Below are positions 7,254 to 64,000 of a stretch of 64,000 bases of DNA, one piece after another. Made by a program: the position numbers and the translations under genes. A model generated the notes under the pieces. The model saw only the letters and a list, made by a program, of their open reading frames with translations, searched no databases and had not been told where the DNA came from. The stretch lies in the NCBI GenBank assembly GCA_041671645.1, contig JBAZBD010000001.1, forward strand, positions 607,234-671,233. Direction: 5' to 3'. The first letter of the stretch is position 1; each line of letters opens with the position of its first letter. Source of the stretch: Patescibacteria group bacterium. Lineage in GTDB: Bacteria; Patescibacteriota; UBA1384; XYA2-FULL-43-10; 1-14-0-10-43-13.

Positions 7254-7699
7254 TATTTCTTCACTTTTTCTTTAACTTTTTTCTCTACTTTGACAGCTTC
7301 TTCTGTTTTCTCAGCTTTTTCAGCTTTGGTTTCAACCTTTTTGTCCTCTTTGACAACTGTTTTCTTGCCGATAAGCTCTACGCGCATCATGCTAGAATTG
7401 TCGCCAACTCTGTTTTTCAGGTGATAGCTTTTGCAGAAACCACTTTTGCGATCAGCAAATCTAGGAACTAACTCTTCGATAACTTTCTTAACTGCGTTTT
7501 TGTCGAAGAAAATAGTATTTAGATTTCTGATTACATTGAAATCAGTGCCTTTGTTGCGAGCCAATACCTTGTCGATATATGACTTAACCTCTTTGGCTTT
7601 GGCTTCGGTGGTATCGATTGTTTCATACAATACCAAAGAAGTAGCCAGGTTTCGGATTAAGTGATTTCGGTGATCGGTTTTTCTTCCAAACTTTCTCAT
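7253..7699 (-). CDS. rplQ: 50S ribosomal protein L17 with a Lys/Glu-rich C-terminal tail
   Basis: 148 aa. MRKFGRKTDHRNHLIRNLATSLVLYETIDTTEAKAKE matches bL17. The C-terminal roughly 40 aa are K/E-rich. Confidence 0.9.
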   Translation of the reverse strand: MRKFGRKTDHRNHLIRNLATSLVLYETIDTTEAKAKEVKSYIDKVLARNKGTDFNVIRNLNTIFFDKNAVKKVIEELVPRFADRKSGFCKSYHLKNRVGDNSSMMRVELIGKKTVVKEDKKVETKAEKAEKTEEAVKVEKKVKEKVKK

Positions 7700-10105: not shown

Positions 10106-10178
10106 TATTTGATTCCTTATTACTTTGACTTAACTTTATGAGCTTTATGGACTTTTGACTTTAGACTTGCGCTACGCG

Positions 10179-10325
10179 TTAGCCTTGTCTCTGTTTGTGC
10201 TTTGGATTCTCACATAAGATAAAAACCCGCTTCTTCGAGCTGATTCGGGAACATTTTCCCTTCTTGCTTCGGATAACGACTTTACACTTATCACAAATTT
10301 TCTTTACGGATGCCTGTACTTTCAT
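10179..10325 (-). CDS. rpmJ: 50S ribosomal protein L36 (zinc-ribbon type, with a small insertion)
   Basis: Not in the ORF track (under 60 aa). Hand translation gives [48 protein letters not shown] (48 aa). It lies between rpsM and infA as in the canonical spc/alpha cluster. Confidence 0.85.
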
Positions 10326-23014: not shown

Positions 23015-23040
23015 AATATTTTCTTAACTTTATACTTTTA

Positions 23041-28486: not shown

Positions 28487-28562
28487 TGGCTCCCGAGACA
28501 GGACTTGAACCTGCGACCAGTGGCCTATAAACCACTTGCTCTACCAACTGAGCTACTCGGAA
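28487..28562 (-). tRNA. tRNA gene (CCA-encoded). Isotype uncertain: most like tRNA-Ile2/Met class, possible anticodon UAU, non-canonical 8-nt anticodon loop.
   Basis: Minus-strand reading: UUCCGAG-UA-GCUCAGUUGGUAGAGC-A-AGUGG-UUUAUAGG-CCACU-GGUC-GCAGG-UUCAAGU-CCUGU-CUCGGGA-G-CCA. The acceptor, D and T arms are perfect. The anticodon stem AGUGG/CCACU leaves an 8-nt loop. The backbone resembles E. coli ileX. Confidence 0.7.
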
Positions 28563-28575
28563 AAACCAATGAAAC

Positions 28576-28653
28576 TGGAGCCTCCTGCAGGGGTTGAACC
28601 TGCGACCTCTGTCTTAAATAGACAAGTGCTCTGGCCGACTGAGCTAAGGAGGC
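28576..28653 (-). tRNA. tRNA gene (CCA-encoded). Isotype uncertain: Lys(UUU)-like backbone with an irregular anticodon arm.
   Basis: GCCUCCU-UA-GCUC-AGUCGGCCA-GAGC-AC-UUGUC-UAUUUAA-GACAG-AGGUC-GCAGG-UUCAACC-CCUGC-AGGAGGC-U-CCA. It is 78 nt. The arms are perfect except the anticodon arm, which needs an extra nt at position 26 and gives A at position 33. Confidence 0.7.
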
Positions 28654-28862
28654 TTCGCTTTCGCGAAATGTAAAGTACAATCTAAGAGTAGAACAATGCC
28701 ATATTTGGCAGTTACCAAGCGGAGGTACCGTGCAAAGGTTATGTTCCGCTACTTTGGTTGAATATGCCGTTGTTCTACTCAGTTGAGTATACTTATCCGA
28801 TATTTGGTTGTGAAATACGTGATTTACTCCAAAAAAGAATGTGGCCATAGATCTTAGCTGAT

Positions 28863-28878
28863 TCCGCCAGCTGGCGGA
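28863..28878. repeat. Perfect palindrome TCCGCCAGCTGGCGGA, copy 2
   Basis: Exact match to the 16-mer at 14748-14763. It is intergenic between rpsJ and the tRNAs. Confidence 0.8.
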
Positions 28879-29019
28879 CAACTCGATATCTACGACTTGC
28901 TCATGGAGCTTTCAAATTATCTGATCTCAATATACCGAATTTGACTCGAAAAGTCAACTGCCTTCGGCAAGTTGAAAGTCCATCAAGTCGAAAGTCATAA
29001 AGCAACTATTTCTAGCACC

Positions 29020-29060
29020 TTATGACTTTATAGACTTTACGAACTTTATAACTTTTGACT
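29020..29060. repeat. ACTTT-rich short tandem repeat (site A of a dispersed family)
   Basis: TATGACTTTATAGACTTTACGAACTTTATAACTTTTGACT. GTCGAAAGTCATAAAG lies just upstream at 28987-29002. Confidence 0.7.
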
Positions 29061-29079
29061 AGTCGATCTAGATCGACTA
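29060..29079. terminator. Perfect 20-bp palindrome TAGTCGATCTAGATCGACTA overlapping the rpsJ stop codon
   Basis: An exact reverse-complement palindrome. It is a possible 3' stem-loop or protein-binding site and is followed by the A/T-rich repeat. Confidence 0.4.
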
Positions 29080-32772: not shown

Positions 32773-32993
32773 AAATTTCCTAAGTAATTCTTAATTTTTA
32801 TTCGTTAATTTTTATTCAAATTCAAATTTGTAATTCTAAATTAATAATTGATTAGAAATTAATAATTAGGAACTAAAAATTTGATTGCCCTAGCAATCTA
32901 AAATTTTCCCCATTTCCGTTCAATATTAACACAATTATTCCCAAAGTGTCAATCGTGATTGAACGTGCCACAAATAGGCCATAAACGACAATT

Positions 32994-33017
32994 CCCTCAC
33001 CCGCTGTGGGGTGAGGG
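32994..33017. terminator. Hairpin CCCTCACCC-gctgt-GGGGTGAGGG downstream of the 33037..33366 gene
   Basis: 9-bp perfect GC-rich stem with a weak U-tract on the minus strand. Confidence 0.4.
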
Positions 33018-33036
33018 ACTGCAATCCTTATGGGGA

Positions 33037-33366
33037 CTATTGGTTCACGGTTTCGACCGTGATTTCGGTGACCGTCGTGGTCACCACTTTTCTGAATCTC
33101 AGCACGGTGACGGGGGGAAGCTCCGGCTCTGGTCTCTTCGAGACGGGCCGAATCATCGCCATTCGTGCTGCGACGGCCTTTGCCCGAACCTCGGGCTGGA
33201 GAATCTCACTGTACTGGGTGGCGAGATCCAAGATCTGCGCCTTTGCAGCACGTGTCTTCATCGACACAAGCAATTGAATAAGTTCAATCGCCTCGTCGAC
33301 CCCTCCGGGTTTTGACCCTTTTACTACGATTTGGCCAGCAATCTCGCTAGCCGTCTGCTTCTGCAT
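33037..33366 (-). CDS. Hypothetical protein, GC-rich gene (start refined)
   Basis: Start at MQKQTASEIAGQ..., with GGAGG 9 nt upstream. The track's longer start at 33423 would run into the shared promoter. 109 aa with no recognised domain. GC is about 55%. Confidence 0.5.
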   Translation of the reverse strand: MQKQTASEIAGQIVVKGSKPGGVDEAIELIQLLVSMKTRAAKAQILDLATQYSEILQPEVRAKAVAARMAMIRPVSKRPEPELPPVTVLRFRKVVTTTVTEITVETVNQ

Positions 33367-33413
33367 TTTCTGCATCCTCCGTTTTGTATTACCGCTATGC
33401 TTGCGGTAGACCA

Positions 33414-33460
33414 ATTCTAGCACAAATCACCTTGACATGTCAAGGGAAAAGGAGTATAAT
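33414..33460. promoter_or_regulatory. Divergent promoter pair sharing the palindromic -35 TTGACATGTCAA
   Basis: Plus strand: TTGACA at 33432-33437, a 17-nt spacer, TATAAT at 33455-33460. Minus strand: TTGACA (reverse complement of 33438-33443), an 18-nt spacer, TAGAAT (reverse complement of 33414-33419). Confidence 0.5.
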
Positions 33461-33519
33461 ATTAATTATCCAAAGAGCAGTTCGTGCTTGGAGGAAGATT
33501 TCTAAAGGAGGTAACGCTC

Positions 33520-33996
33520 ATGCGTTACACATTAATAATCCTGGCCATCGTGGCTATTATCCTTCTGAGTGGGTGTTCTGGCCTACAGGCTAAGTTCCCA
33601 CGGATCGAAAGGGTCCGCATGGACCGACCCTCGTCCTCCTTTATCGTTGTGACCAATAGGGCAGACGGCTATGTAAATGCCGAATGCTACTATCTGGTCG
33701 ACCATCTTGGCCAGCCAACGTCCAACGCGGCTGGTACGAAACATGTCGTTTTCACGACAAATCAGGTCAAAGTGATCGGGTTTGATCGTGAAAGAGGTCA
33801 GGCAATATTTGTCGTGACATCAGGCTATTGGGACTCGCTCCCCACAGCGGTCCCTGTTTATGTGGCGGCCCAGTATTCAAACTGGGTCTGGGATTATTCC
33901 CACCCGCAAAACAATGATCCTTCGACGTATGACGCCAGCACCTCTGGCTTGTTCCGATTTGATGTCGGAGCAACCGAGGGTGTCTCGGTATATTAG
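33520..33996 (+). CDS. Hypothetical lipoprotein, GC-rich gene
   Basis: AAGGAGGT lies 8 nt before the ATG at 33520. MRYTLIILAIVAIILLSGCSG is a signal peptide with the lipobox LSGC. 158 aa mature protein, rich in aromatics and Asn, with no known domain. Confidence 0.6.
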   Translation: MRYTLIILAIVAIILLSGCSGLQAKFPRIERVRMDRPSSSFIVVTNRADGYVNAECYYLVDHLGQPTSNAAGTKHVVFTTNQVKVIGFDRERGQAIFVVTSGYWDSLPTAVPVYVAAQYSNWVWDYSHPQNNDPSTYDASTSGLFRFDVGATEGVSVY

Positions 33997-34017
33997 ACCC
34001 AATTTAATTGGGATCAG

Positions 34018-34080
34018 GCAGATAACAGGAAGTTATCTGCACTGAAAAATGATCTTCTCTAGCAGGAGATCATTTTTTAT
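34018..34080 (+). terminator. Tandem hairpins ending in a T-run (Rho-independent terminator of the lipoprotein gene)
   Basis: GCAGATAAC-agga-aGTTATCTGC, then AAAAATGATCTtCT..AGgAGATCATTTTTT. Confidence 0.6.
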
Positions 34081-34130
34081 TTACACAATTCAACCACGCA
34101 ATTGAATTATTCATTCAAAACCTATAAATC

Positions 34131-34172
34131 ATGTCTATGATTTTGAAACGATCGTTTCTTATTCTTAGACAG
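34131..34172. repeat. 42-bp direct repeat copy 1 (contains the perfect palindrome GAAACGATCGTTTC), overlapping the 3' end of the PaaX-like gene
   Basis: ATGTCTATGATTTTGAAACGATCGTTTCTTATTCTTAGACAG. About 40 of 42 positions are identical to the copy at 34748-34789. It contains an internal TGTCTA...TAGACA inverted repeat. Confidence 0.8.
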
Positions 34173-34719
34173 ACTTTGAGAGAATTCCAAGTATTGATTT
34201 GTTGATACTGCTTTGCTCTGCGATGAAGCTCGCAACGTATTCTTCGACTTTGTACTCAATCGATGCCAGCTCAACAAATTCGGCCGCGTCTTTGTCGGTG
34301 ACCCACAAGCTCCTTTGGATTTGTTTGAAACCCATCCGTTTCAGAACCTTACGGAAATTATTTCGGCGAGTGCTCAAATATTCTGGGATATCGAAAGAAA
34401 CAAGTAAGAAACGATCAATTAGCTTGTTATGCTTCACAATTTTGTCGGCCACCTTCAATCTTGCCTTGTTCGTAAAAACGATAGACTCCTGCGCGTCCTG
34501 CCTGATCTCAATATATTTTCGCCTTTTCATGGAGTCAATAAATTTGCAGAAATTCCGATAGGTCAGTGTTGGTTCAGCATAGTAAAGCTGTCTGTAAACT
34601 TCTTTCCGTCCTCCTGCAATGATCAAAAATGACTCGGTTAACCCGAGGACAGAATCCAAAACCCTTTCCAAGGTAAGCGACGCCGCTTGAGCAATATTTT
34701 CTTTTAACTCCTTCTCCAT
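34165..34719 (-). CDS. PaaX-like putative transcriptional regulator (N-terminal wHTH-like region plus C-terminal Cas2-like domain)
   Basis: 184 aa. The C-terminal FLLVSFDIPEYLSTRRNNFRKVLKRMGFKQIQRSLWV follows the Cas2 beta1-alpha1-beta2 pattern (xLVxYDI....RR.KVxKxLxxxGxRxQxSVF). The N-terminal roughly 100 aa (FCKFIDSMKRRKYIEIRQD...SIVFTNKARLKV) look like a winged helix. The domain order matches PaaX. The call was made by eye. Confidence 0.4.
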   Translation of the reverse strand: MEKELKENIAQAASLTLERVLDSVLGLTESFLIIAGGRKEVYRQLYYAEPTLTYRNFCKFIDSMKRRKYIEIRQDAQESIVFTNKARLKVADKIVKHNKLIDRFLLVSFDIPEYLSTRRNNFRKVLKRMGFKQIQRSLWVTDKDAAEFVELASIEYKVEEYVASFIAEQSSINKSILGILSKSV

Positions 34720-34747
34720 ACATTAATCTTATTACGATTTATTATAT

Positions 34748-34789
34748 ATGTCTATGATTTTGAAACGATCGTTTCTTTTTCATAGACAG
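34748..34789. repeat. 42-bp direct repeat copy 2 (palindrome GAAACGATCGTTTC at 34762-34775), between the PaaX-like gene and paralog 1
   Basis: ATGTCTATGATTTTGAAACGATCGTTTCTTTTTCATAGACAG. It lies 12 nt upstream of the -35 of the paralog-1 promoter and 29 nt upstream of the PaaX-like start on the other strand. Confidence 0.8.
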
Positions 34790-34800
34790 TTTGCAAATGA

Positions 34801-34829
34801 TTGCTAATAACGAGCCGATTTGGTATAGC
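34801..34829 (+). promoter_or_regulatory. Sigma70-like promoter TTGCTA-17-TATAGC for paralog 1
   Basis: Part of the duplicated unit GAGCCGATTTGGTATAGCT shared with the paralog-2 upstream region. Confidence 0.4.
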
Positions 34830-34862
34830 TTTATTAAGATCAAACCTCAAAGGAGAAATTTG

Positions 34863-35417
34863 ATGCAAAATTGGATCGAAGAGATAGCCAATAAAATTGG
34901 AGTCGAGTTTTCTCGGCATCCCCTCACTCTATTACTGCTTGACCAGATCAAACTGGTCGAAGAGTCCGATTGTGTACACAAAGACAATCTTCTCGAGACA
35001 TTCGAAGTGTTCGTCTCAGCAGAGCACGACACCGCCTATATGGCGCTTGATTGGCTGGCCGAGGCAAGCGAAGGCGAGTGCAGCGAGCCAGAATGTGTAC
35101 AGCACGCCTCGATAATGTTGGTTGCCATTTTCACCGGAAAGGGAAGTATCCTCAACGTACTGGCTTCAGGCGACAAATGTCTGTATACGATTAAGCACTT
35201 CTACGAAAAAAATCGAAGGAACAAAGAGTTGAAGGCTTTCAACCGCCTGTGTCTTGCCGCTCTCAGACATGCAGGAGTAGACTTCTCCCAATGTCTTGAA
35301 ATAGATGAATCCTCCTGGGGATTTATTAAAATTGCGGAGGCGCACAAATGGATTGTTGATAGTAGTTATTATGACCGTTTCGAAGCGAATACCAAGAAAA
35401 AACCCGAGGGTTCTTAG
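34863..35417 (+). CDS. Hypothetical protein, tandem paralog 1
   Basis: Start at MQNWIEEIANK, with AAAGGAGAAA upstream. 184 aa. It shares conserved blocks with paralog 2 (HPLT..L+DQI..., P.CVQ+AS++L.A+FT.K, LCLA.L.HAGVD.SQC). No family was recognised. Confidence 0.6.
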   Translation: MQNWIEEIANKIGVEFSRHPLTLLLLDQIKLVEESDCVHKDNLLETFEVFVSAEHDTAYMALDWLAEASEGECSEPECVQHASIMLVAIFTGKGSILNVLASGDKCLYTIKHFYEKNRRNKELKAFNRLCLAALRHAGVDFSQCLEIDESSWGFIKIAEAHKWIVDSSYYDRFEANTKKKPEGS

Positions 35418-35452
35418 CAATAGCAAGAATCCTTTTTTATTTCTCTCCAAAA

Positions 35453-35481
35453 TTGCAAACCATGAGCCGATTTGGTATAGC
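35453..35481 (+). promoter_or_regulatory. Sigma70-like promoter TTGCAA-17-TATAGC for paralog 2
   Basis: Same architecture and core sequence as the paralog-1 promoter. Confidence 0.4.
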
Positions 35482-35520
35482 TGTATTAGAGATCAAATCC
35501 ATACAAGAAGGAGGCATCTG

Positions 35521-36069
35521 ATGCCCGGATTGCCTGAATATCTCAAACAGATCAGCACCCCTTTCGCGGAGCATCCGCTCACGAATTTCCTGATTGACCA
35601 GATCGAAATGGCCAATTTGACCAATTTTCCTGGCAAGCACAATTTACTTGCCACTTTCGAAGAGTATGTCCTCGCGAGAGGCTATAATGTTTACCTTGAA
35701 AATTTGGCGAACGACAGCCGCGGCAAAAGAAATCAGCCCAAATGCGTTCAGTACGCCTCGCTGATTCTGACCGCCCTTTTCACCGAGAAGGCAGTCGTAC
35801 TCAATTCGTTTTATCAGGGCAATTCAAGCCTGGACGCGCTTATAGACTTTTACGATGAAAATCGTGAAAATGATCAGCTCAAAGACCTAACCTGGCTATG
35901 TCTTGCCGGACTTGCACACGCAGGCGTCGACCTGTCCCAATGCTATGGCATAGCAAATTGGCAAACGGAGGGTCTGATCGAATCACCGCTCCAGTGGATT
36001 ATCGCCGGAACATATTCCATCCGTCTGGAGGCTAATAAGCAACCAAAACCCGAGGATTCTTCGCAGTAG
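35521..36069 (+). CDS. Hypothetical protein, tandem paralog 2
   Basis: Start at MPGLPEYLKQ, with AAGGAGG upstream. 182 aa. It is a paralog of 34863..35417 and is followed by a similar terminator hairpin. Confidence 0.6.
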   Translation: MPGLPEYLKQISTPFAEHPLTNFLIDQIEMANLTNFPGKHNLLATFEEYVLARGYNVYLENLANDSRGKRNQPKCVQYASLILTALFTEKAVVLNSFYQGNSSLDALIDFYDENRENDQLKDLTWLCLAGLAHAGVDLSQCYGIANWQTEGLIESPLQWIIAGTYSIRLEANKQPKPEDSSQ

Positions 36070-36090
36070 CAGGAATCCTTTTTTAATACC

Positions 36091-36116
36091 AAAAAACGGC
36101 CGAAGCCGTTTTTTGT
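36091..36116. terminator. Bidirectional Rho-independent terminator AAAAAACGGC-cgaa-GCCGTTTTTTG
   Basis: Perfect 8-bp stem with a GNRA-like loop, flanked by an A-run and a T-run. Confidence 0.75.
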
Positions 36117-36205
36117 CTGAAATAGTTGTCTGAGGCCAAAGAAATCAAAATCTTTAATTGCTTTGGTCCCAGTCGATGCTTTGTGCGATCGACCGGATAG
36201 TTTCC

Positions 36206-36850
36206 CTACTCAGGCTCGCTGACCCATAGGCCGCGATTCTGAAGGGAGGTCTTGTAACTGTCGTAGGCTCTGTCAGCGGCCCCTGGAGCGGTGGTGATAT
36301 CGAATGTGTCCCAGATATCACCGGTTTGGGGTAATGCCTTGCATTCCTCGTAAAATGCAGACCTACTCCCCTCTTCGGGGAAAGTGAATTCAATGAACTC
36401 AACCATCCGTGATTTGTCCCCTTCGAACATCCAGCTGCTGAACTTGTTGGTCCAGCAATAGGCTTCGCGGTCGAAGGGTTTCAGCCGCAGGTAGGCTTCA
36501 TACGCTTGCCTTTCGGCAACGTGGCTCAGGTATACCGCCAATTCGTACTGGTCGGTATAACCGTTATACTTTCGGGCCGGATTGTGCTCGGTGTACTGCT
36601 TATCAAGCAAGGCCACCTGGCGGGTGCGCTCGCGATACTCGTCATAGACTCGTATTGCGAAAGAAATCCTTGCCCAATCGGGCGTTTGCGCAGCGATAAT
36701 TTGCTGCGACTTCTGCTGCTCGATGGCAGCTCTGGCTTGTGCTTTTTCAGCACCAACGCGTTGTCCATACTCATAGCACACGCTACCAGTGATGGCGCAA
36801 ATTACAGCCATAATGACCAACTGGCCAAAATGAATTCCTATTCCCTTCAT
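36206..36850 (-). CDS. Hypothetical membrane-anchored protein, GC-rich gene (start refined)
   Basis: Start at MKGIGIHFGQLVIMAVICAITG (AAAGGAGA lies 5 nt upstream). The track's 297-aa form would overlap rpsG. 214 aa with one N-terminal TM helix and no known domain. Confidence 0.55.
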   Translation of the reverse strand: MKGIGIHFGQLVIMAVICAITGSVCYEYGQRVGAEKAQARAAIEQQKSQQIIAAQTPDWARISFAIRVYDEYRERTRQVALLDKQYTEHNPARKYNGYTDQYELAVYLSHVAERQAYEAYLRLKPFDREAYCWTNKFSSWMFEGDKSRMVEFIEFTFPEEGSRSAFYEECKALPQTGDIWDTFDITTAPGAADRAYDSYKTSLQNRGLWVSEPE

Positions 36851-36983
36851 TACTGTCTCCTTTTTCGCATTTCGCGGGATAGATGTACTTATATTACTAC
36901 ATTTTGTCCTATTTGTCAATGGTAAATACAAAAATGGCTCCGGGTGAGCGGAGTCATTTTCTATATTCTGTGAATCTATTTGA

Positions 36984-37515: not shown

Positions 37516-37552
37516 GCTTTACTTTTTAACTTTATACTTTATAACTTTTAAC
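37516..37552. repeat. ACTTT-rich short tandem repeat (site B), rpsL-rpsG intergenic
   Basis: CTTTACTTTTTAACTTTATACTTTATAACTTTTAACT. Confidence 0.6.
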
Positions 37553-37965
37553 TATTCTTTCCCTGCTTTGGCGCCGTACTTGCTACGAGACTGTTTGCGG
37601 CCTTTGACACCGGCCAAGTCGAGCTTGCCACGAACGATATGATATCGCATACCTGGAAGGTCTTTCACACGACCACCACGGATTACTACAACTGAGTGCT
37701 CCTGGAGATTGTGGCCTTCACCACCGATATAAGCGTTTACCTCATAACCATTGGTTAATCTGACACGGGCGAATTTACGCAAAGCTGAGTTTGGTTTCTT
37801 TGGTGTCATAGTACCAACTTTGATACAAACACCGCGTTTTTGAGGACAACCAAGCTTAACCGGCTTGTTCTGAAGAAAGTTAAAAGTATTCTTCAAAGCG
37901 GTTGTCTTTGATTTTCTAGTGGTTTTCTGTCGACCCTGTCTGACTAATTGATTGATTGTTGGCAT
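37552..37965 (-). CDS. rpsL: 30S ribosomal protein S12
   Basis: 137 aa. [14 protein letters not shown]...[16 protein letters not shown]. Confidence 0.95.
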
Positions 37966-46174: not shown

Positions 46175-47161
46175 TTAGGCTCGATTAAATTCCGAGACCT
46201 CGAGTTTGATCCGTTGTGTTAGCGCCTCCAAGCCTTCATGGGTTGCGGCAGAAATCACGATTGGAGAGATCTTCTTTTTCTTGAGCTCCCTAACGTCTTC
46301 CTTGACCTTATCTGGAGAAACGGTATCGATTTTATTCAAGACAACAATTTCTTTCTTGTTCAGCATTTCTTTGGAAAAAGCTTTGAGTTCATTTCGAATA
46401 GTTTTGTAATCAGCTGTCAAATCAAGAGAAGCGGCATCCAAGATATGTATCAAAATTTTGGTTCTCTCAACATGACGGAGAAATCTGTCCCCCAGTCCCC
46501 TACCCAAAGAAGCACCCTCGATCAAACCTGGAATGTCGGCAATGATAATTCGTGTTTCGCGGTCGATAAATGTGCCTAGGTTTGGCTCTAATGTGGTAAA
46601 TGGGTAATCAGCAATTTTGGGGTGAGCACTTGTCAGAACGGAAAGTAGAGTTGATTTGCCAGCGTTTGGAAGACCAATCACTCCAATATCAGCGATTGTC
46701 TTCCAGATAAGTTTTAGTTTCTTGCCCTCGCCTCGCATACCATCTTTGGCCCAGGCTGGAGCCTGTTTGATCGATGTTGCGAAATGCTGGTTGCCCCAGC
46801 CACCGTTGCCGCCAGAAACAATTGTGATTTTCTGATCGTCACCGATCATATCGGCAATCAATTCGTCTTTTTCGAAGATCTGAGTGCCAGCAGGAACCTT
46901 GAGTATTAGATCAACAGCATTTTTGCCATGTTTGTTTTTGCCCATCCCCTTTTCGCCATCAGGTGCGAGAAATTTCTTTTGTCTGTTGTATTCAGAGAGC
47001 CCATGGATTCCAGAATCGACTTCGATAAGGATATCGCCGCCACGACCGCCATCGCCGCCGTCAGGACCGCCTTCGGGAATAAACTTCTCACGACGAAAAG
47101 AAACGACGCCGTTGCCGCCCTTGCCTGCCTTCACATAGATTTCTACTTCGTCTATAAACAA
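46175..47161 (-). CDS. obg: GTPase Obg/CgtA (no C-terminal TGS-like extension)
   Basis: 328 aa. The glycine-rich Obg fold GGNGG...DGGDGGRGG is followed by a G domain (GLPNAGKST, DIPGLIEGA, NKID). Confidence 0.95.
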   Translation of the reverse strand: MFIDEVEIYVKAGKGGNGVVSFRREKFIPEGGPDGGDGGRGGDILIEVDSGIHGLSEYNRQKKFLAPDGEKGMGKNKHGKNAVDLILKVPAGTQIFEKDELIADMIGDDQKITIVSGGNGGWGNQHFATSIKQAPAWAKDGMRGEGKKLKLIWKTIADIGVIGLPNAGKSTLLSVLTSAHPKIADYPFTTLEPNLGTFIDRETRIIIADIPGLIEGASLGRGLGDRFLRHVERTKILIHILDAASLDLTADYKTIRNELKAFSKEMLNKKEIVVLNKIDTVSPDKVKEDVRELKKKKISPIVISAATHEGLEALTQRIKLEVSEFNRA

Positions 47162-47256
47162 TTGAGTCCTTAAGGTTAAAAGTCATAAAGTCGAAAGTGC
47201 TATTACAATAACATAAACACAGAAAAATATCTACCCGCCGAATCTGACGGCTCGAT

Positions 47257-47296
47257 GGACTTTATGGACTTTATAGACTTTATGAACTTTATGAAC
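47257..47296. repeat. 9-bp tandem repeat GGACTTTAT x ~4.4 (site C of the ACTTT family), upstream of obg
   Basis: GGACTTTAT GGACTTTAT AGACTTTAT GAACTTTAT GAACT. The related AAGTCATAAAGTCGAAAGTG lies at 47176-47199. Confidence 0.8.
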
Positions 47297-48435
47297 TACC
47301 TGAGATCGAAATAAACCCAGTGGCCATCGACAATCTTTTCAAAATGAAGATGCGGGCCGGTAGAGCGGCCGGAATTGCCTGAGAGGCCGATAGTTTCGCC
47401 AGCAGAGACACTATCGCCTGGACTAACGCTAATCTGGCTCAAATGCGCGTAACGAGTGGCGACGCCATTACCGTGCGAAACGACAATTTCGTTTCCATAG
47501 CCGCCAGACCAGCCAGTTGAGACCTGAATCACGACACCGCTTGCCGCTGAGCGAACAGGTGTGCCGACACTAACAACGTAATCGATCCCAGTATGGCTAC
47601 GCCCGACACCGCGAGAAATATATGAATAAGCCACTGGCACAGAAAGGTTGGAATCACCTCCCTGATAGTCTCCGCTGTATGTTCTGCTTGAGGTCGATTG
47701 TCTGGCCACAGTATTTCGAGTCGCGGCAGCAACTAGGGCTTGCTTCGCCTTAGCCTTCTGTGCGATAAGGGTTGCCGATGTATCGTCGCCCTTTTTCGGC
47801 ACCTTGAGTCTCATACCTGGCTTGATCGCGTTGACGTTGTCAATATCGTTCACGTATTTCAAGGTTGTAAGTTTGAGATTAAATTTCCAAGCCAACACAG
47901 TTAGCGTGTCGCCAGGTCTGATGATGTAGGCGATTTCTGAGCCTGAATTATCTGGAAGCGGCTCAATTCTCGCTGTGATTTGTGTGTCTAAGGGGGCGAT
48001 ATTTCCGACAAAGCCGTCTTTCGAGGATAGGGCCATGTTACTTTTGTCGATTAATATGCCATCATTTTGCAATAAAACAGTGTATGAATCTACCGAACTA
48101 GCCAAAGTAATTTCATCTTCGGGACCAACCGCGACAAGCTTATCTTGAAGAGTGTCAGCTCTGGCCGTTTCATTAAAATTAGACAATGTCACGAGCAACA
48201 AAAGGGCCACCAAAGCAAAGTGAGGTAGAAATTTATTAGAAAGGAACGCCTGAACTGAGTTGCTTATCGCCTGTGCGATCGCATTGAAGAATCCTCTTGC
48301 TTGACCTGTTTTGCTTCCCACAGCATCAACGCATTCAGATATCATCTTGCCGGTATTTGATATAAATTCAATTTTTTGTTTAGTCTCTTTCGTCTCTTGC
48401 GACGAAGGAGGCTCGTCTTGTAAAATCAAGGCCAT
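47296..48435 (-). CDS. LysM domain-containing M23 family metallopeptidase (membrane-anchored)
   Basis: 379 aa. N-terminal TM helix. LysM: GDTLTVLAWKFNLKLTTLKYVNDIDNVNAIKPGMRLKVP. M23: HTGIDY...GNSGRSTGPHLHFE. Confidence 0.9.
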   Translation of the reverse strand: MALILQDEPPSSQETKETKQKIEFISNTGKMISECVDAVGSKTGQARGFFNAIAQAISNSVQAFLSNKFLPHFALVALLLLVTLSNFNETARADTLQDKLVAVGPEDEITLASSVDSYTVLLQNDGILIDKSNMALSSKDGFVGNIAPLDTQITARIEPLPDNSGSEIAYIIRPGDTLTVLAWKFNLKLTTLKYVNDIDNVNAIKPGMRLKVPKKGDDTSATLIAQKAKAKQALVAAATRNTVARQSTSSRTYSGDYQGGDSNLSVPVAYSYISRGVGRSHTGIDYVVSVGTPVRSAASGVVIQVSTGWSGGYGNEIVVSHGNGVATRYAHLSQISVSPGDSVSAGETIGLSGNSGRSTGPHLHFEKIVDGHWVYFDLR

Positions 48436-52451: not shown

Positions 52452-52509
52452 TATTCCTTCGATCCAATTAATGTGTCATACATTATCATACTTTCACTTT
52501 TTCGGCAAT

Positions 52510-61546: not shown

Positions 61547-61654
61547 GATCTAACTATATTATAATTCCCTATCCCTTTCAACCTTTGGCCAAAGAAAATG
61601 ACCCCGGTATTCGGAGCCATCTTCACTGTTCAAAAACAAAAAATTTGTCAAAAA

Positions 61655-61801
61655 TTATTTGTTGCCGCCGATGCGGAAAACCTTAGTACCACATTTTGGG
61701 CAAGAACCCTTGATTGCCATTTTACCGTTTTTCATTTGGTAATCTTCTGCACCTTGGATTTCAACCTTGCCTTTGCATTTAACACAATATGCTTCTGCCA
61801 T
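61655..61801 (-). CDS. Small zinc-ribbon protein (48 aa; conserved DUF-type family)
   Basis: Not in the track. GGAGGTG RBS. MAEAYCVKCKGKVEIQGAEDYQMKNGKMAIKGSCPKCGTKVFRIGGNK has a C..C...C..C pattern. The family is recognised from memory only. Confidence 0.6.
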   Translation of the reverse strand: MAEAYCVKCKGKVEIQGAEDYQMKNGKMAIKGSCPKCGTKVFRIGGNK

Positions 61802-62056
61802 TTTTTAATTCACCTCCTTCCTTATTTTTTCCCCTCCGCTTTGGGCCTCGCGGTCCTGCATGAGGAGTTTAAATTTCATAATACAATTGTAAGTTCGTTT
61901 GAGCTCACATGTCAAGCGTATTTGAGAATAAAAATCAGGCCTGTGAACTCATCAAAATATTATCTTCTCTGGAAGCTGTAAATTAGTCCATCAAGCTCAA
62001 AATACTTCAGCTTTCGACTTTCAACTTTCGACTATTGAGCGAGGTTATCCCCAGCA

Positions 62057-62548: not shown

Positions 62549-62661
62549 CTTTTCCCTTCAATTATTCTTAATGCAACCATAGTAATCGAACCAGATTAAT
62601 CTGTCAAAAGGCGGCTTTCCTGAGCTCCAACAATTTCAACTTTATACTTTCTACTTTATAA

Positions 62662-64000
62662 CTAGCGAGGCCACTTGGAAATCATAATCGAGTCTTTGAG
62701 CCTTGGCGATATCTTGCGAAGTTCTTGCCAGACGGCTTCAGTCACGAAAGGCATGAATGGATGCAACATCTGAAGAGATTCAACGATGATCTTGATAAGA
62801 ATTTTCTTGGTATTGTTCCCAATTTTGCTGTCATCTAGTTGAGCCTTCGTCGCTTCTATATATACGTCGCAAAAATCGTGCCAGAAATAAGCGTAAATTT
62901 CCTCCGCAGCAAAAGAGAAATTATATTTCTCGATATTCTTGGTCACTGACTTAATTGTCTCAGCATGCTTTTTCAATATCGCTTTGTCGGCATCAGTCAA
63001 AATAGAATTATCAATTTCTAGATCCCCTATTGTTTCCTCTCCAATTTCACCTGTCTGAACGTCACCACCAGTGACACGTAAAATTGTAAATCTGGAAGCA
63101 TTCCAGATCTTGTTGGAGAAATTGCGCATACCACGAATCTTTTCCTCCGAAATCACTGCGTCGTTGCCTGCGGAAGTGCCGAAAACGAGCGCCATGCGGA
63201 CGGCGTCAGAACCATACAAATCGGCTACGCCGAGAGGATCTATCACATTTCCCTTGGATTTGCTCATCTTCTGGCGATCCTTGTCTCGGACCAAGCCGTG
63301 GAGATAAACATTTTCAAATGGAACCTTGTCGGTAACATAAAGTCCAAGCATCATCATACGAGCGACCCAGAAGAAGAGAATGTCCCAGCCGGTCTCCATG
63401 ACAGTTGTAGAGTAAAATTTGTCAAAATCTTTCGACTTTCGACTTTCGACTTTCGACTCGCCGCTTTGCGAGAGCAAAGTGGCAAAGGGCCATTGGCCAG
63501 AAGAAAACCAGGTATCGAATACGTCAGGATCGCGGTCAAGTTTGGTAGATCCGCATTCTGGGCATCGCTCTGGTGTTTCGCCGTTTGTAACTATCGTTTC
63601 GCCACATTTACAATACCAAACTGGCAACTGGATCCCCCAGACGATCTGGCGGGAGACATTCCAATCACGAATATTGGTCATCCAGTGACGATATATTTTT
63701 TCGAATTTTTCAGTTACGAACTTTGTCTTGCCGGTATCTACTGCGTCCAATGCATCCTTGGCTAGTGTCTTGCCGGACTTCTTGCCTTTTTCGTTCACAG
63801 CAATGAACCACTGAGGCAGGACTCTTGGCTCGATCACGGTGCCGCATTTGTAGCATTTACCAACAGTATGAGTATAATTCTCGTCAATTTTTTCGATCAA
63901 TCCCTTGGCCTGCATATCTTCTGCAACCTTGAGGCGGGCCTCTTTGACCTTCATGCCTTTGTATGGGCCTGCTTTTTCATTCAAACGTCCGTATTGATCT
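62662..64000 (-). CDS. valS: Valine--tRNA ligase, C-terminal half (5' end beyond the window edge)
   Basis: DVFDTWFSSGQWPF and TGWDILFFWVARMMM match ValRS (T. thermophilus-like, with zinc knuckles CYKCG...CKCG..CPECG). KMSKSKGN is present. The ORF remains open to nt 64000. Confidence 0.85.
   Translation of the reverse strand, partial: DQYGRLNEKAGPYKGMKVKEARLKVAEDMQAKGLIEKIDENYTHTVGKCYKCGTVIEPRVLPQWFIAVNEKGKKSGKTLAKDALDAVDTGKTKFVTEKFEKIYRHWMTNIRDWNVSRQIVWGIQLPVWYCKCGETIVTNGETPERCPECGSTKLDRDPDVFDTWFSSGQWPFATLLSQSGESKVESRKSKDFDKFYSTTVMETGWDILFFWVARMMMLGLYVTDKVPFENVYLHGLVRDKDRQKMSKSKGNVIDPLGVADLYGSDAVRMALVFGTSAGNDAVISEEKIRGMRNFSNKIWNASRFTILRVTGGDVQTGEIGEETIGDLEIDNSILTDADKAILKKHAETIKSVTKNIEKYNFSFAAEEIYAYFWHDFCDVYIEATKAQLDDSKIGNNTKKILIKIIVESLQMLHPFMPFVTEAVWQELRKISPRLKDSIMISKWPR
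63430..63457. repeat. 7-bp tandem repeat (TTTCGAC) x4 inside the valS coding sequence (site F of the ACTTT/TCGAAAGT family)
   Basis: tttcgac tttcgac tttcgac tttcgac. On the coding strand it encodes the in-frame low-complexity insert ESKVESRKSKD. Confidence 0.8.

Follow-up and report, generated by a model that had tools for sequence, protein, structure and literature searches.

We describe here a dispersed family of short tandem repeats in a stretch of 64,000 nucleotides (nt) from the genome of a Patescibacteria group bacterium (assembly GCA_041671645.1, contig JBAZBD010000001.1, positions 607,234 to 671,233 of the forward strand; hereafter the window). The repeats share the core AAAGU(C/U) in mRNA sense and nearly all lie just past stop codons, and at some gene boundaries two arrays in inverted orientation are predicted to pair into a long stem. 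The reading that we prefer, and to which we give about an even chance, is that of a lineage-specific family driven by slippage and copying, in which the paired members would be stems for double-stranded-RNA processing or for marking gene boundaries, and the solitary ones tolerated by-products.

The Obg protein of the window has its best relatives (58-64% identity) in metagenome-assembled genomes (MAGs) of the "Candidatus Saccharibacteria / Patescibacteria group". Based on Pfam matches and gene tables, the gene order comprises rpoB-rpoC-rpsL-rpsG, fusA-tuf-rpsJ, the S10/spc/alpha ribosomal-protein genes, gyrB-gyrA-infB, obg and valS. The minus strand holds nearly all window genes, and the plus-strand ACTTT repeats, taken as the motif by an earlier sequence-only reading, therefore read AAAGU in mRNA. 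In this sense the unit is (NN)NNAAAGU[C/U], and a module consists of two to five tandem units of 7 or 9 nt. Repeats were recovered at all seven places named in that reading, with Tandem Repeats Finder (TRF) or as AAAGT-strand stretches. Its "six sites" are all real, yet undercount the family, since 10120-10168, 23027-23040 and 52490-52501 were missed; two stretches that it had listed as extra arrays (28946-29002 and 47176-47199) are instead inverted partners pairing with 29019-29060 and 47255-47297. In total, the window holds at least nine arrays and two inverted partner arms. Only the array in valS is a perfect heptamer (100%), the others mixing 7- and 9-nt units with 76-91% match in TRF.

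We defined clusters as at least three ACTTT or AAAGT with starts no more than 16 nt apart, and found seven in the window, whereas first- and third-order Markov simulations averaged 0.05 and never exceeded one (150 runs); AAAGT ranks top among non-homopolymer pentamers for such clustering. One of the seven (7263-7291, in an ACTTT-rich stretch at 7263-7327) was rejected as a family member, as it codes for a Lys/Glu-rich C-terminal tail. Eight of the nine arrays fall in non-coding DNA, which makes up about 9% of the window (an estimate from summed spacers), and all eight begin 2-28 nt past a stop codon, the distance to the next start codon ranging from 10 to 90 nt. For every solitary array and every 5' arm, AAAGU reads in the sense of the gene ending there. 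This orientation also holds for the opposite-strand gene rnc, where the array is at the same time the partner arm of a pair described below and hence provides no independent test. Two further arrays are found in the 8.75 kb that adjoin the window on its left, taken from a contig of the same strain (Logan SRR18595301_54253, here L176) that overlaps the window over 11.9 kb with 100% identity. The same clusters occur once in 125 kb of six other Saccharibacteria loci, four times in 1.1 Mb of other phyla, and twice in 346 kb of Patescibacteria metagenome contigs, both on one contig. Four sites are identical in an independent assembly of the same strain (Logan SRR18595301), which together with the diverged rpsJ-site hairpin in another sample (L089, see below) indicates that the arrays are not assembly artefacts. 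One contig of that assembly stops inside the 47-kb array, as expected of a repeat that breaks short-read assemblies. Searches against Rfam (gathering threshold and E<=1) returned two tRNAs only and no match at any array, and no consensus promoter was found within the arrays themselves, sense or antisense.

The arrays are, to judge from the stretches they have in common, related copies and not independent microsatellites. A 26-mer, ATAAAGTTCRTAAAGTCTATAAAGTC, occurs without mismatch at 29024-29049 (rpsJ site) and 47267-47292 (obg site), none being expected by chance; written as ATAAAGTTC(G/A)TAAAGTCTATAAAGTC, it is common to both 5' arms without other difference. A third copy, with 25 of 26 positions matching, is present in the same strain at L176:16267-16292, and TAGTYAAAAGTTATAAAGT is common to the rpsL and rpsJ modules. 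The valS array and the one at 62000-62033, 1.4 kb apart, represent the same module type (GAGUCGAAAGUC versus UAGUCGAAAGUU; unit strings GAGTCGAAAGTC... in valS and TAGTCGAAAGTT... after the thioredoxin-like gene). Furthermore, eight of ten modules open with TAG(T/C), while the overall frequency of TAGT is 0.0019 per position. The opening TAG is the stop codon itself for rpsL, valS, the M23 peptidase gene and the Peptidase_S11 gene, and TAG is the stop of 15 out of 64 genes overall. The shared 26-mer, the TAG(T/C) boundary and the other shared stretches, which include 'variable' positions of the unit, show that modules were copied between loci rather than produced by independent slippage.

Sequence comparison shows that modules also grow and shrink by unit steps, in line with the earlier suggestion of a slippage-prone family: unit number differs between lineages at the rpsL-rpsG, valS and PF05635-flanking arrays. 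The rpsL-rpsG array is 18 nt (two units) shorter in L001/L003, which have an identical RpsL and keep TAATTAAA-TAATAAGTAAAG there, and around the PF05635 gene three lineages have upstream arrays of 4, 4 and 3 units and downstream arrays of about 4, 2-3 and 3 units (9-nt unit differences). All this variation is between lineages, the only near-identical assembly being of the same strain. On the three counts that could have spoken against a genuine dispersed family, the opposite was therefore found: unit number is not invariant, the sites have more in common than a frequent AT-rich k-mer, as the 26-mer illustrates, and arrays are enriched between genes.

The paired arrays are predicted to form stems in the transcript that are maintained as structures in relatives. 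There are three paired loci in total, two in the window and one in the adjacent sequence, with long, imperfect, AU-rich stems of 27-35 bp. Past rpsJ, the main stem (28976-29046) consists of 30 bp of AAAGU/ACUUU pairing around a loop of 24 nt (z score -6.4), and a small GC hairpin (28958-28970) comes after the 3' arm. The promoter-like element beyond it has a -35 hexamer that is half of a palindrome, TTGACT/AGTCAA, sharing the GACTTT/AAGTC motif. The second stem occupies the 134-nt spacer between the LysM/M23-peptidase gene and obg (47159-47302, about 27 bp, loop of about 70 nt, z -3.0), and its 3' arm covers the obg Shine-Dalgarno sequence AAGGA. Both window hairpins are sited between protein or tRNA genes and have no PF05635 open reading frame (ORF) in the loop.

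Such an ORF is present in the third pair. At L176:15839-16300, 8 kb left of the window, a gene for a PF05635 "23S rRNA intervening sequence protein" (a four-helix bundle) is bracketed by AAAGUC/GACUUU arrays. The AAAGU array directly follows the stop of a Peptidase_S11 (D-Ala-D-Ala carboxypeptidase) gene and pairs with an ACUUU array 390 nt away, in both the minimum free energy (MFE) and the centroid structure, so as to enclose the whole ORF. The convergent gene for RNase III (rnc; PF00636 and dsrm domains) adjoins the cassette, and its UAA stop falls within the far arm. The cassette is syntenic between Peptidase_S11 and rnc in L176, L177 and L178; the two related lineages encode PF05635 proteins 89% and 77% identical and also carry pairing AAAGUC/GACUUU arrays. 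In the three lineages the flanking arrays pair in the global MFE over 34, 15 and 26 bp (duplex z -6.9, -6.2 and -4.4).

In relatives, the hairpin persists while its units are replaced, as at the rpsJ site. The relative L089, from a different sample (ENA ERZ27297473), keeps the AAAGU/ACUUU hairpin of the rpsJ site with few substitutions (z -5.9). In L084, L085, L087, L088 and L091, a hairpin of similar size occupies the same position before the same conserved promoter, with arms made of (GUCGGGA)n and its complement (z -4.9 and -6.7 in L084/L085); L084 also carries (AAGTCAA)x4.6. After the thioredoxin-like gene, most relatives have a canonical terminator with a U-tract, and L096 has a hairpin of (GAAUCUU)/(AGAUUCU) heptamers (z -3.2). 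Other Saccharibacteria possess units of their own, either just past stops (AAATTAC, AATTAGA, AAATCCG, AATTCAA) or, pyrimidine-rich, just before starts (CTTAATC, CCTCAGTC). Two adjacent period-8 arrays, (GGTTCAGA)x4.2 then (CCTCAGTC)x3.8, are found in the tuf-rpsJ spacer of L089 (L089:138-204) with partial pairing (z -1.65); the same spacer in the window is ordinary and 38 nt long.

Across all loci fetched, period 7 lies far above periods 5, 8 and 10. In 1.1 Mb of other phyla, 15 of 40 period-7 arrays sit immediately upstream of obg, in loci that were fetched through Obg. In nine of the eleven obg-upstream spacers examined, mostly rpmA-obg in Acidobacteriota/Thermoanaerobaculia (rpmA, encoding L27, being recognized from its translation), the whole spacer is a single hairpin (z -2.4 to -6.6), bulged every 7 nt and extending from 1-2 nt past the stop to about 10 nt before the start. 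The obg site of the window is an instance of this stop-to-start heptamer hairpin arrangement, with a different upstream gene. In the rpmA-obg hairpins, each genome builds the arms from its own unit (L014, L025-L027, L032, L034, L039, L052, L068, L078; e.g., L034:9913-10003).

The remaining arrays are solitary (Table 1). The in-frame copy in valS reported by the sequence-only reading is confirmed, and the family has thus also entered a coding region: (TCGAAAG)x4.3 encodes ...SGESKVESRKSKD... in frame, and the linker between ...ATLL and FDKFY... is 36 amino acids (aa) long here versus 27-28 aa in most orthologues. Comparison with orthologues, as that reading had proposed, shows the insert to be absent from most of them, including the two closest (74-75% identity), which have a linker of 27-28 aa. 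A more distant ValS (L092, 68% identity) has an imperfect (AAAGTCA)n array of about five units in the same place, encoding SKSKGESQKSKE. The insert is therefore lineage-restricted and variable, in what appears to be an insertion-tolerant loop. The spacer 3' of valS was less structured than 200 of 200 shuffles (z +2.5).

Table 1. Repeat arrays, pairing arms and adjoining elements of the window, with descriptions in mRNA sense where RNA letters are used.
Feature	Position	Strand	Description
rpsJ-3' hairpin, 5' arm	29019-29060	-	four AAAGU units (GUCAAAAGUUAUAAAGUUCGUAAAGUCUAUAAAGUC); opens UAGUC; 21 nt past rpsJ stop
rpsJ-3' hairpin, 3' arm	28946-29002	-	mRNA sense GCUUUAUGACUUUCGACUUGAUGGACUUUCAAC; plus strand = AAAGT repeats
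Perfect 20-bp palindrome	29060-29079	.	TAGTCGATCTAGATCGACTA; overlaps rpsJ stop (29077-29079), directly upstream of array hairpin
Promoter-like TTGACT-17-TATATT	28929-28957	-	immediately past rpsJ-3' hairpin; conserved in relatives
M23-peptidase/obg hairpin, 5' arm	47255-47297	-	(AUAAAGUYC)x4.8; begins at peptidase UAG stop (47296-47298)
M23-peptidase/obg hairpin, 3' arm	47167-47199	-	CACUUUCGACUUUAUGACUUUUAACCUUAAGGACU; ends 6 nt before obg UUG start
Solitary array, rpsL-rpsG spacer	37516-37552	-	UAG UUAAAAGUUAUAAAGUAUAAAGUUAAAAAGUAAAG; 3 nt past rpsL stop; predicted unpaired
Solitary array, rpmJ-rpsM spacer	10120-10168	-	UCUAAAGUCAAAAGUCCAUAAAGCUCAUAAAGUUAAGUCAAAGU; 16 nt past rpmJ stop to 5 nt before rpsM Shine-Dalgarno
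Solitary array after valS	62631-62661	-	UUAUAAAGUAGAAAGUAUAAAGUUGAAAUUG; 4 nt past valS UAG stop
Solitary array after thioredoxin-like gene	62000-62033	-	UAGUCGAAAGUUGAAAGUCGAAAGCUGAAG; 22-28 nt past stop, just beyond conserved CTGGGGATAACC box
Minor 2-unit copy, rplN-rplX	23027-23040	-	UAAAAGUAUAAAGU; 2 nt past rplN (L14) stop, 12 nt before rplX start
Minor 2-unit copy, gyrA-infB	52490-52501	-	AAAAGUGAAAGU; 9 nt past gyrA stop, upstream of infB
In-frame array within valS	63429-63458	-	perfect (UCGAAAG)x4.3; encodes ESKVESRKSK in variable linker
TRF array	10133-10168		rpmJ-rpsM spacer
TRF array	29020-29055		period 9, 4.2 copies
TRF array	37521-37553		period 7, 4.4 copies
TRF array	47255-47297		period 9, 4.8 copies, 91% match
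TRF array	62006-62033		period 7, 4.0 copies
TRF array	62634-62657		period 7, 3.4 copies
TRF array	63429-63458		period 7, 4.3 copies, 100% match
AAAGT-strand stretches	28950-28995 and 47179-47198

By analogy with known stem elements, the paired modules might act as double-stranded-RNA punctuation at gene boundaries, their likeliest role being RNase III processing or the definition of mRNA ends by stems; cleavage by RNase III would fit with the rnc gene in the genome. At the obg site, the stem could keep the Shine-Dalgarno sequence masked for as long as the upstream ribosome has not arrived at its stop codon, and would thereby couple translation of the two genes. The solitary modules, the valS copy included, are probably unstructured by-products, either A-rich half-elements or slippage products that would be tolerated where harmless.

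Several observations weigh against this reading. Only three of about eleven loci are paired; the solitary modules at 10 kb, 37.5 kb, 62.0 kb and 62.6 kb are predicted single-stranded, and a sliding duplex search that recovers the true partners of both hairpins found no convincing partner arm for solitary arrays within +/-1.5 kb. Relatives whose RpsL protein is identical lack the rpsL-rpsG array. Because few loci are paired, solitary arrays are unstructured and this array is missing in relatives, most family members may lack a function. The 491-nt fold around the PF05635 gene reaches a z of just -2.2, and in the distant relative L108 the AAAGU...ACUUU pair after the thioredoxin-like gene does not fold significantly (z -0.8). 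No transposase that might have copied modules between loci was seen in the sequence covered, i.e., 72.7 kb (the window plus the adjacent 8.75 kb) of a genome of about 868 kb. As nearly all genes of the window lie on one strand, array orientation relative to genes is not fully separable from that relative to replication.

Families of this general kind are known. Genome-specific dispersed heptamers have been described as TAACTGA in marine Beggiatoaceae (PMC4679880) and as GGGAATC in Xanthomonas and GGGGAYT in Nostoc (PMC4692102), in addition to the short tandemly repeated repetitive (STRR) heptamers of Calothrix/Anabaena, as cited in these two papers (PMC4679880, PMC4692102). Their locations include ribosomal-protein operons and ORFs, and some form inverted pairs; proposed explanations invoke slippage and RNA-binding proteins, and no function is established (PMC4679880, PMC4692102). 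The present family shows the defining features of this class of heptamer long simple-sequence repeats (LSSRs), namely head-to-tail units, many intergenic loci and variable unit number, barring its degenerate 7/9-nt units. Like them, it consists of arrays of 2-6 copies of one genome-specific unit of the 7-nt class, occurs in ribosomal-protein operons with an occasional copy in an ORF, varies in length and sequence among close relatives, and includes some inverted pairs. Unlike them, it has degenerate units that mix 7 and 9 nt around an AAAGU core, its modules share long stretches between loci, and three loci are stem-forming pairs. It also differs from the TAACTGA repeats, which lie just upstream of starts, in that its arrays are stop-proximal with the purine-rich strand in the mRNA. 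A full-text literature search found no description of such repeat families in Saccharibacteria.

The resemblance raises the question whether the family could be made of purely neutral LSSRs, slippage amplifying tolerated A-rich sequence past stop codons and both stems and shared motif being by-products without a role. Heptanucleotide repeats are over-represented in many bacteria, which was attributed to polymerase slippage (Mrazek 2007, as cited in PMC4679880 and PMC4692102), and the excess of period 7 in the fetched loci, the appearance and loss of arrays between relatives and the lack of structure in solitary arrays all agree with this explanation. It leaves unexplained the 26-mer at three loci, spacer positions included, and the TAG(T/C) boundary, as well as the paired arms conserved around the PF05635 gene in three lineages and the retention of the rpsJ-site hairpin with wholly replaced arms. 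We thus regard neutrality throughout as rather unlikely, while giving it a place among the alternatives.

A more specific proposal, which we put forward only tentatively and think rather improbable as a whole, starts from the PF05635 cassette. The AAAGUC modules might be ORF-less derivatives or single arms of a selfish stem-loop resembling the intervening sequences (IVSs) of 23S rRNA, the full form carrying the PF05635/S23p gene; they would have colonized stop-proximal sites around the chromosome and, cut by RNase III, would punctuate polycistronic mRNAs. More generally, genome-specific heptamer families may be arms of such stems, with units free to turn over as long as the arms pair; the rpmA-obg hairpin of Acidobacteriota would be an example. 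In the IVS of Coxiella burnetii, an S23p ORF lies in the loop of a stem of 28-bp terminal inverted repeats within which RNase III cuts, and two or three tandem heptamers (GACAGAT), depending on the strain, are found at the cleavage site in the 5' region (PMC4990558). As in the IVSs of C. burnetii and Leptospira (PMC4990558), the PF05635 ORF of L176 is looped out by a long terminal-inverted-repeat stem (about 34 bp versus 28 bp in Coxiella) with variable-copy tandem repeats of the heptamer class in its 5' part, and RNase III, the enzyme that processes IVSs, is encoded next to the cassette. However, the cassette lies between Peptidase_S11 and rnc and not in helix 45 of 23S rRNA, both of its arms consist wholly of tandem units, and ORF-less copies and single arms occur at other gene boundaries. 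The family is not an rRNA IVS, since it is not located in 23S rRNA.

We consider it improbable that the arrays are a platform for a protein that binds single-stranded RNA (S1, a cold-shock protein or some other factor) or for the 3' tail of 16S rRNA, with which GAAAG could pair through CUUUC, holding or re-loading ribosomes after termination and so tuning the next cistron. Their constant mRNA-sense orientation, their location directly past stops within operons and their predicted single-strandedness would suit such a platform. Some of them (before rpsM and rplX) abut the next ribosome-binding site, and a similar proposal exists for the TAACTGA repeats inside ribosomal-protein operons (PMC4679880). 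Yet, arrays also follow genes without a co-oriented downstream cistron (the thioredoxin-like gene, and rpsJ before a promoter), unrelated units occupy the same places in relatives, the distance to the next start varies as given above, and no candidate protein was identified.

Equally doubtful is an element acting at the DNA level, either a mobile hairpin comparable to REPINs or miniature inverted-repeat transposable elements (MITEs), with its transposase elsewhere, or arrays of half-sites for a DNA-binding protein, with an operator TTGACTT-N3-AAGTCAA over the -35 at 28941-28957. The near-identical 26-mers with a defined TAG(T/C) end and the inverted pairs could be seen in this light, as could the conserved palindrome that shares its heptamer with the family and the (AAGTCAA)x4.6 array of L084. 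Against it, neither a transposase nor target-site duplications were seen in the 72.7 kb, the synteny of the PF05635 cassette in three lineages means that it was not recently mobile, and the rpsL-rpsG array resembles an in-situ expansion of pre-existing A-rich sequence. Moreover, a spacing of 7-9 bp places successive sites on different faces of the helix, and the strand bias tracks transcription. Among known elements, the repetitive extragenic palindromes (REP, BIME, REPIN) of Enterobacteria and Pseudomonas are likewise extragenic, dispersed, hairpin-forming and found just past stops and between cistrons. In E. coli, REPs make the mRNA upstream of them more stable and tune gene expression inside operons. 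A REP is a single GC-rich, imperfect palindrome of 20-40 nt that recurs in hundreds of copies and is linked to a REP-associated tyrosine transposase (RAYT), whereas the arms found here are AU-rich tandem arrays, single modules are not palindromic, most are unpaired, and no RAYT was seen in the same 72.7 kb. Nothing indicates the nucleoid role that the sequence-only reading had considered.

Uptake sequences (of the DUS or USS type) were also considered and rejected: AAAGTC/GACTTT hexamers number just 66 in 64 kb, about twice the estimated ~31, and the excess lies mostly inside the arrays. The 16-mer TAAAGTCTATAAAGTC has 97 matches in IMG/VR, in unrelated AT-rich viral contigs; we judged this to be about chance level and dismissed a viral origin. 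In two of the contigs, L195 (IMG/VR 3300014204_000827) and L241 (a giant-virus MAG), (T)AGACTTT(A/T) 9-mer arrays occur in repeated intergenic regions, each array of L195 being preceded by AAAAATTTGCG; they turned up only since the query consists of two units of that 9-mer.

It is quite unlikely that the hairpins are Rho-independent terminators and the solitary arrays their decayed halves. The terminator signal suggested by the sequence-only reading stands insofar as two long hairpins lie at gene boundaries, and like Rho-independent terminators they mark the 3' ends of genes, as rpsJ before its promoter illustrates; canonical terminators are found in relatives after the thioredoxin-like gene, at the same position where L096 and L108 have array pairs. 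However, the stems are AU-rich, run to a length of about 30 bp with periodic bulges and have no U-tract after them, and a terminator consensus scan skipped them, calling only the 28958-28970 hairpin at the rpsJ site and nothing in the 47162-47295 spacer. The obg-site stem furthermore extends to the start codon of obg, in what is probably an operon, and since canonical terminators exist in the clade, such an unusual form would need explaining. The family is thus not a canonical intrinsic terminator. It is not a contingency locus either: unit number does differ between lineages, but phase variation is hardly conceivable for arrays that lie past stop codons rather than in promoter spacers or 5' coding parts, that neighbour housekeeping genes, and whose sole coding copy is in frame at 30 nt in the essential valS, in which gain or loss of one 7-nt unit would be lethal. 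Finally, the apparent link to highly expressed translation genes did not hold up, as the window consists mostly of such genes anyway and arrays also follow the M23 peptidase gene, the thioredoxin-like gene, gyrA and the D-Ala-D-Ala carboxypeptidase gene.

The surroundings of the arrays hold further features that we report in their own right. On the minus strand, about 275 nt of conserved non-coding sequence (28652-28928) separate the promoter at 28929-28957 from a tRNA-Lys(UUU), inserted between rpsJ and rplC. The stretch is kept in relatives with indels that are not multiples of three, and RNAalifold predicts 72 pairs from four sequences, 10 of them with compensatory double changes. With no Rfam match at E<=1, it represents a candidate undescribed structured RNA of Saccharibacteria. 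The nearby tRNA at 28487-28562 (minus strand; Rfam tRNA score 53.7 bits) received a 4-base anticodon, 'tata', and no amino-acid assignment from ARAGORN, and may be a tRNA-Ile(UAU) whose anticodon loop is enlarged. The CTGGGGATAACC box (62043-62056, minus strand), which immediately follows the thioredoxin-like gene, is kept in all relatives. It resembles a DnaA box, and we rejected an oriC/DnaA reading of this site, as DnaA-box matches number 12 versus 14.4 expected and the neighbours are sugar and glycosyl transferase genes, not dnaA/dnaN. About 150 nt beyond the box (about 61680-61720, minus strand) lies a strongly conserved promoter-like element, AAGCTTGACA-N17-TACAATTGTAT; the overlapping plus-strand ORF 61598-61981 has no Pfam match and may be spurious; the start of an unannotated transcript may lie there. 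The genes rpsG and fusA are separated by non-ribosomal ORFs on both strands, which span about 4.2 kb (32773-36983) and break the usual str operon order, and in the corresponding region of the relative L002 a gene beyond rpsG has PaaX_M and weak CRISPR_Cas2 Pfam matches. The rpmJ frame (10179-10325, minus strand) encodes an L36 of about 48 aa with an internal Lys/Ser-rich stretch; L36 is typically about 38 aa long.

Genome-specific tandem heptamer families (STRR, TAACTGA, GGGAATC) have been known since 1990 and have no accepted function. To these the Saccharibacteria example adds modules that are copied between loci, beyond in-place slippage, a position bound to the stop codon and the sense of the gene that ends there, and predicted paired stems that relatives keep as structures while their units swap, one of them enclosing an IVS-type gene beside the gene for RNase III. 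If the stems serve as RNase III substrates or boundary elements, simple-sequence repeats would be connected with rRNA intervening sequences and operon punctuation, and post-transcriptional control would become more accessible in the Patescibacteria, which are very reduced and little studied. If not, they would represent another lineage-specific microsatellite family, of note mainly because it can mark strains and break assemblies. In either case, the conserved stems predicted from paired arrays, one of them IVS-like, give the old puzzle of the heptamer repeats a testable hypothesis.

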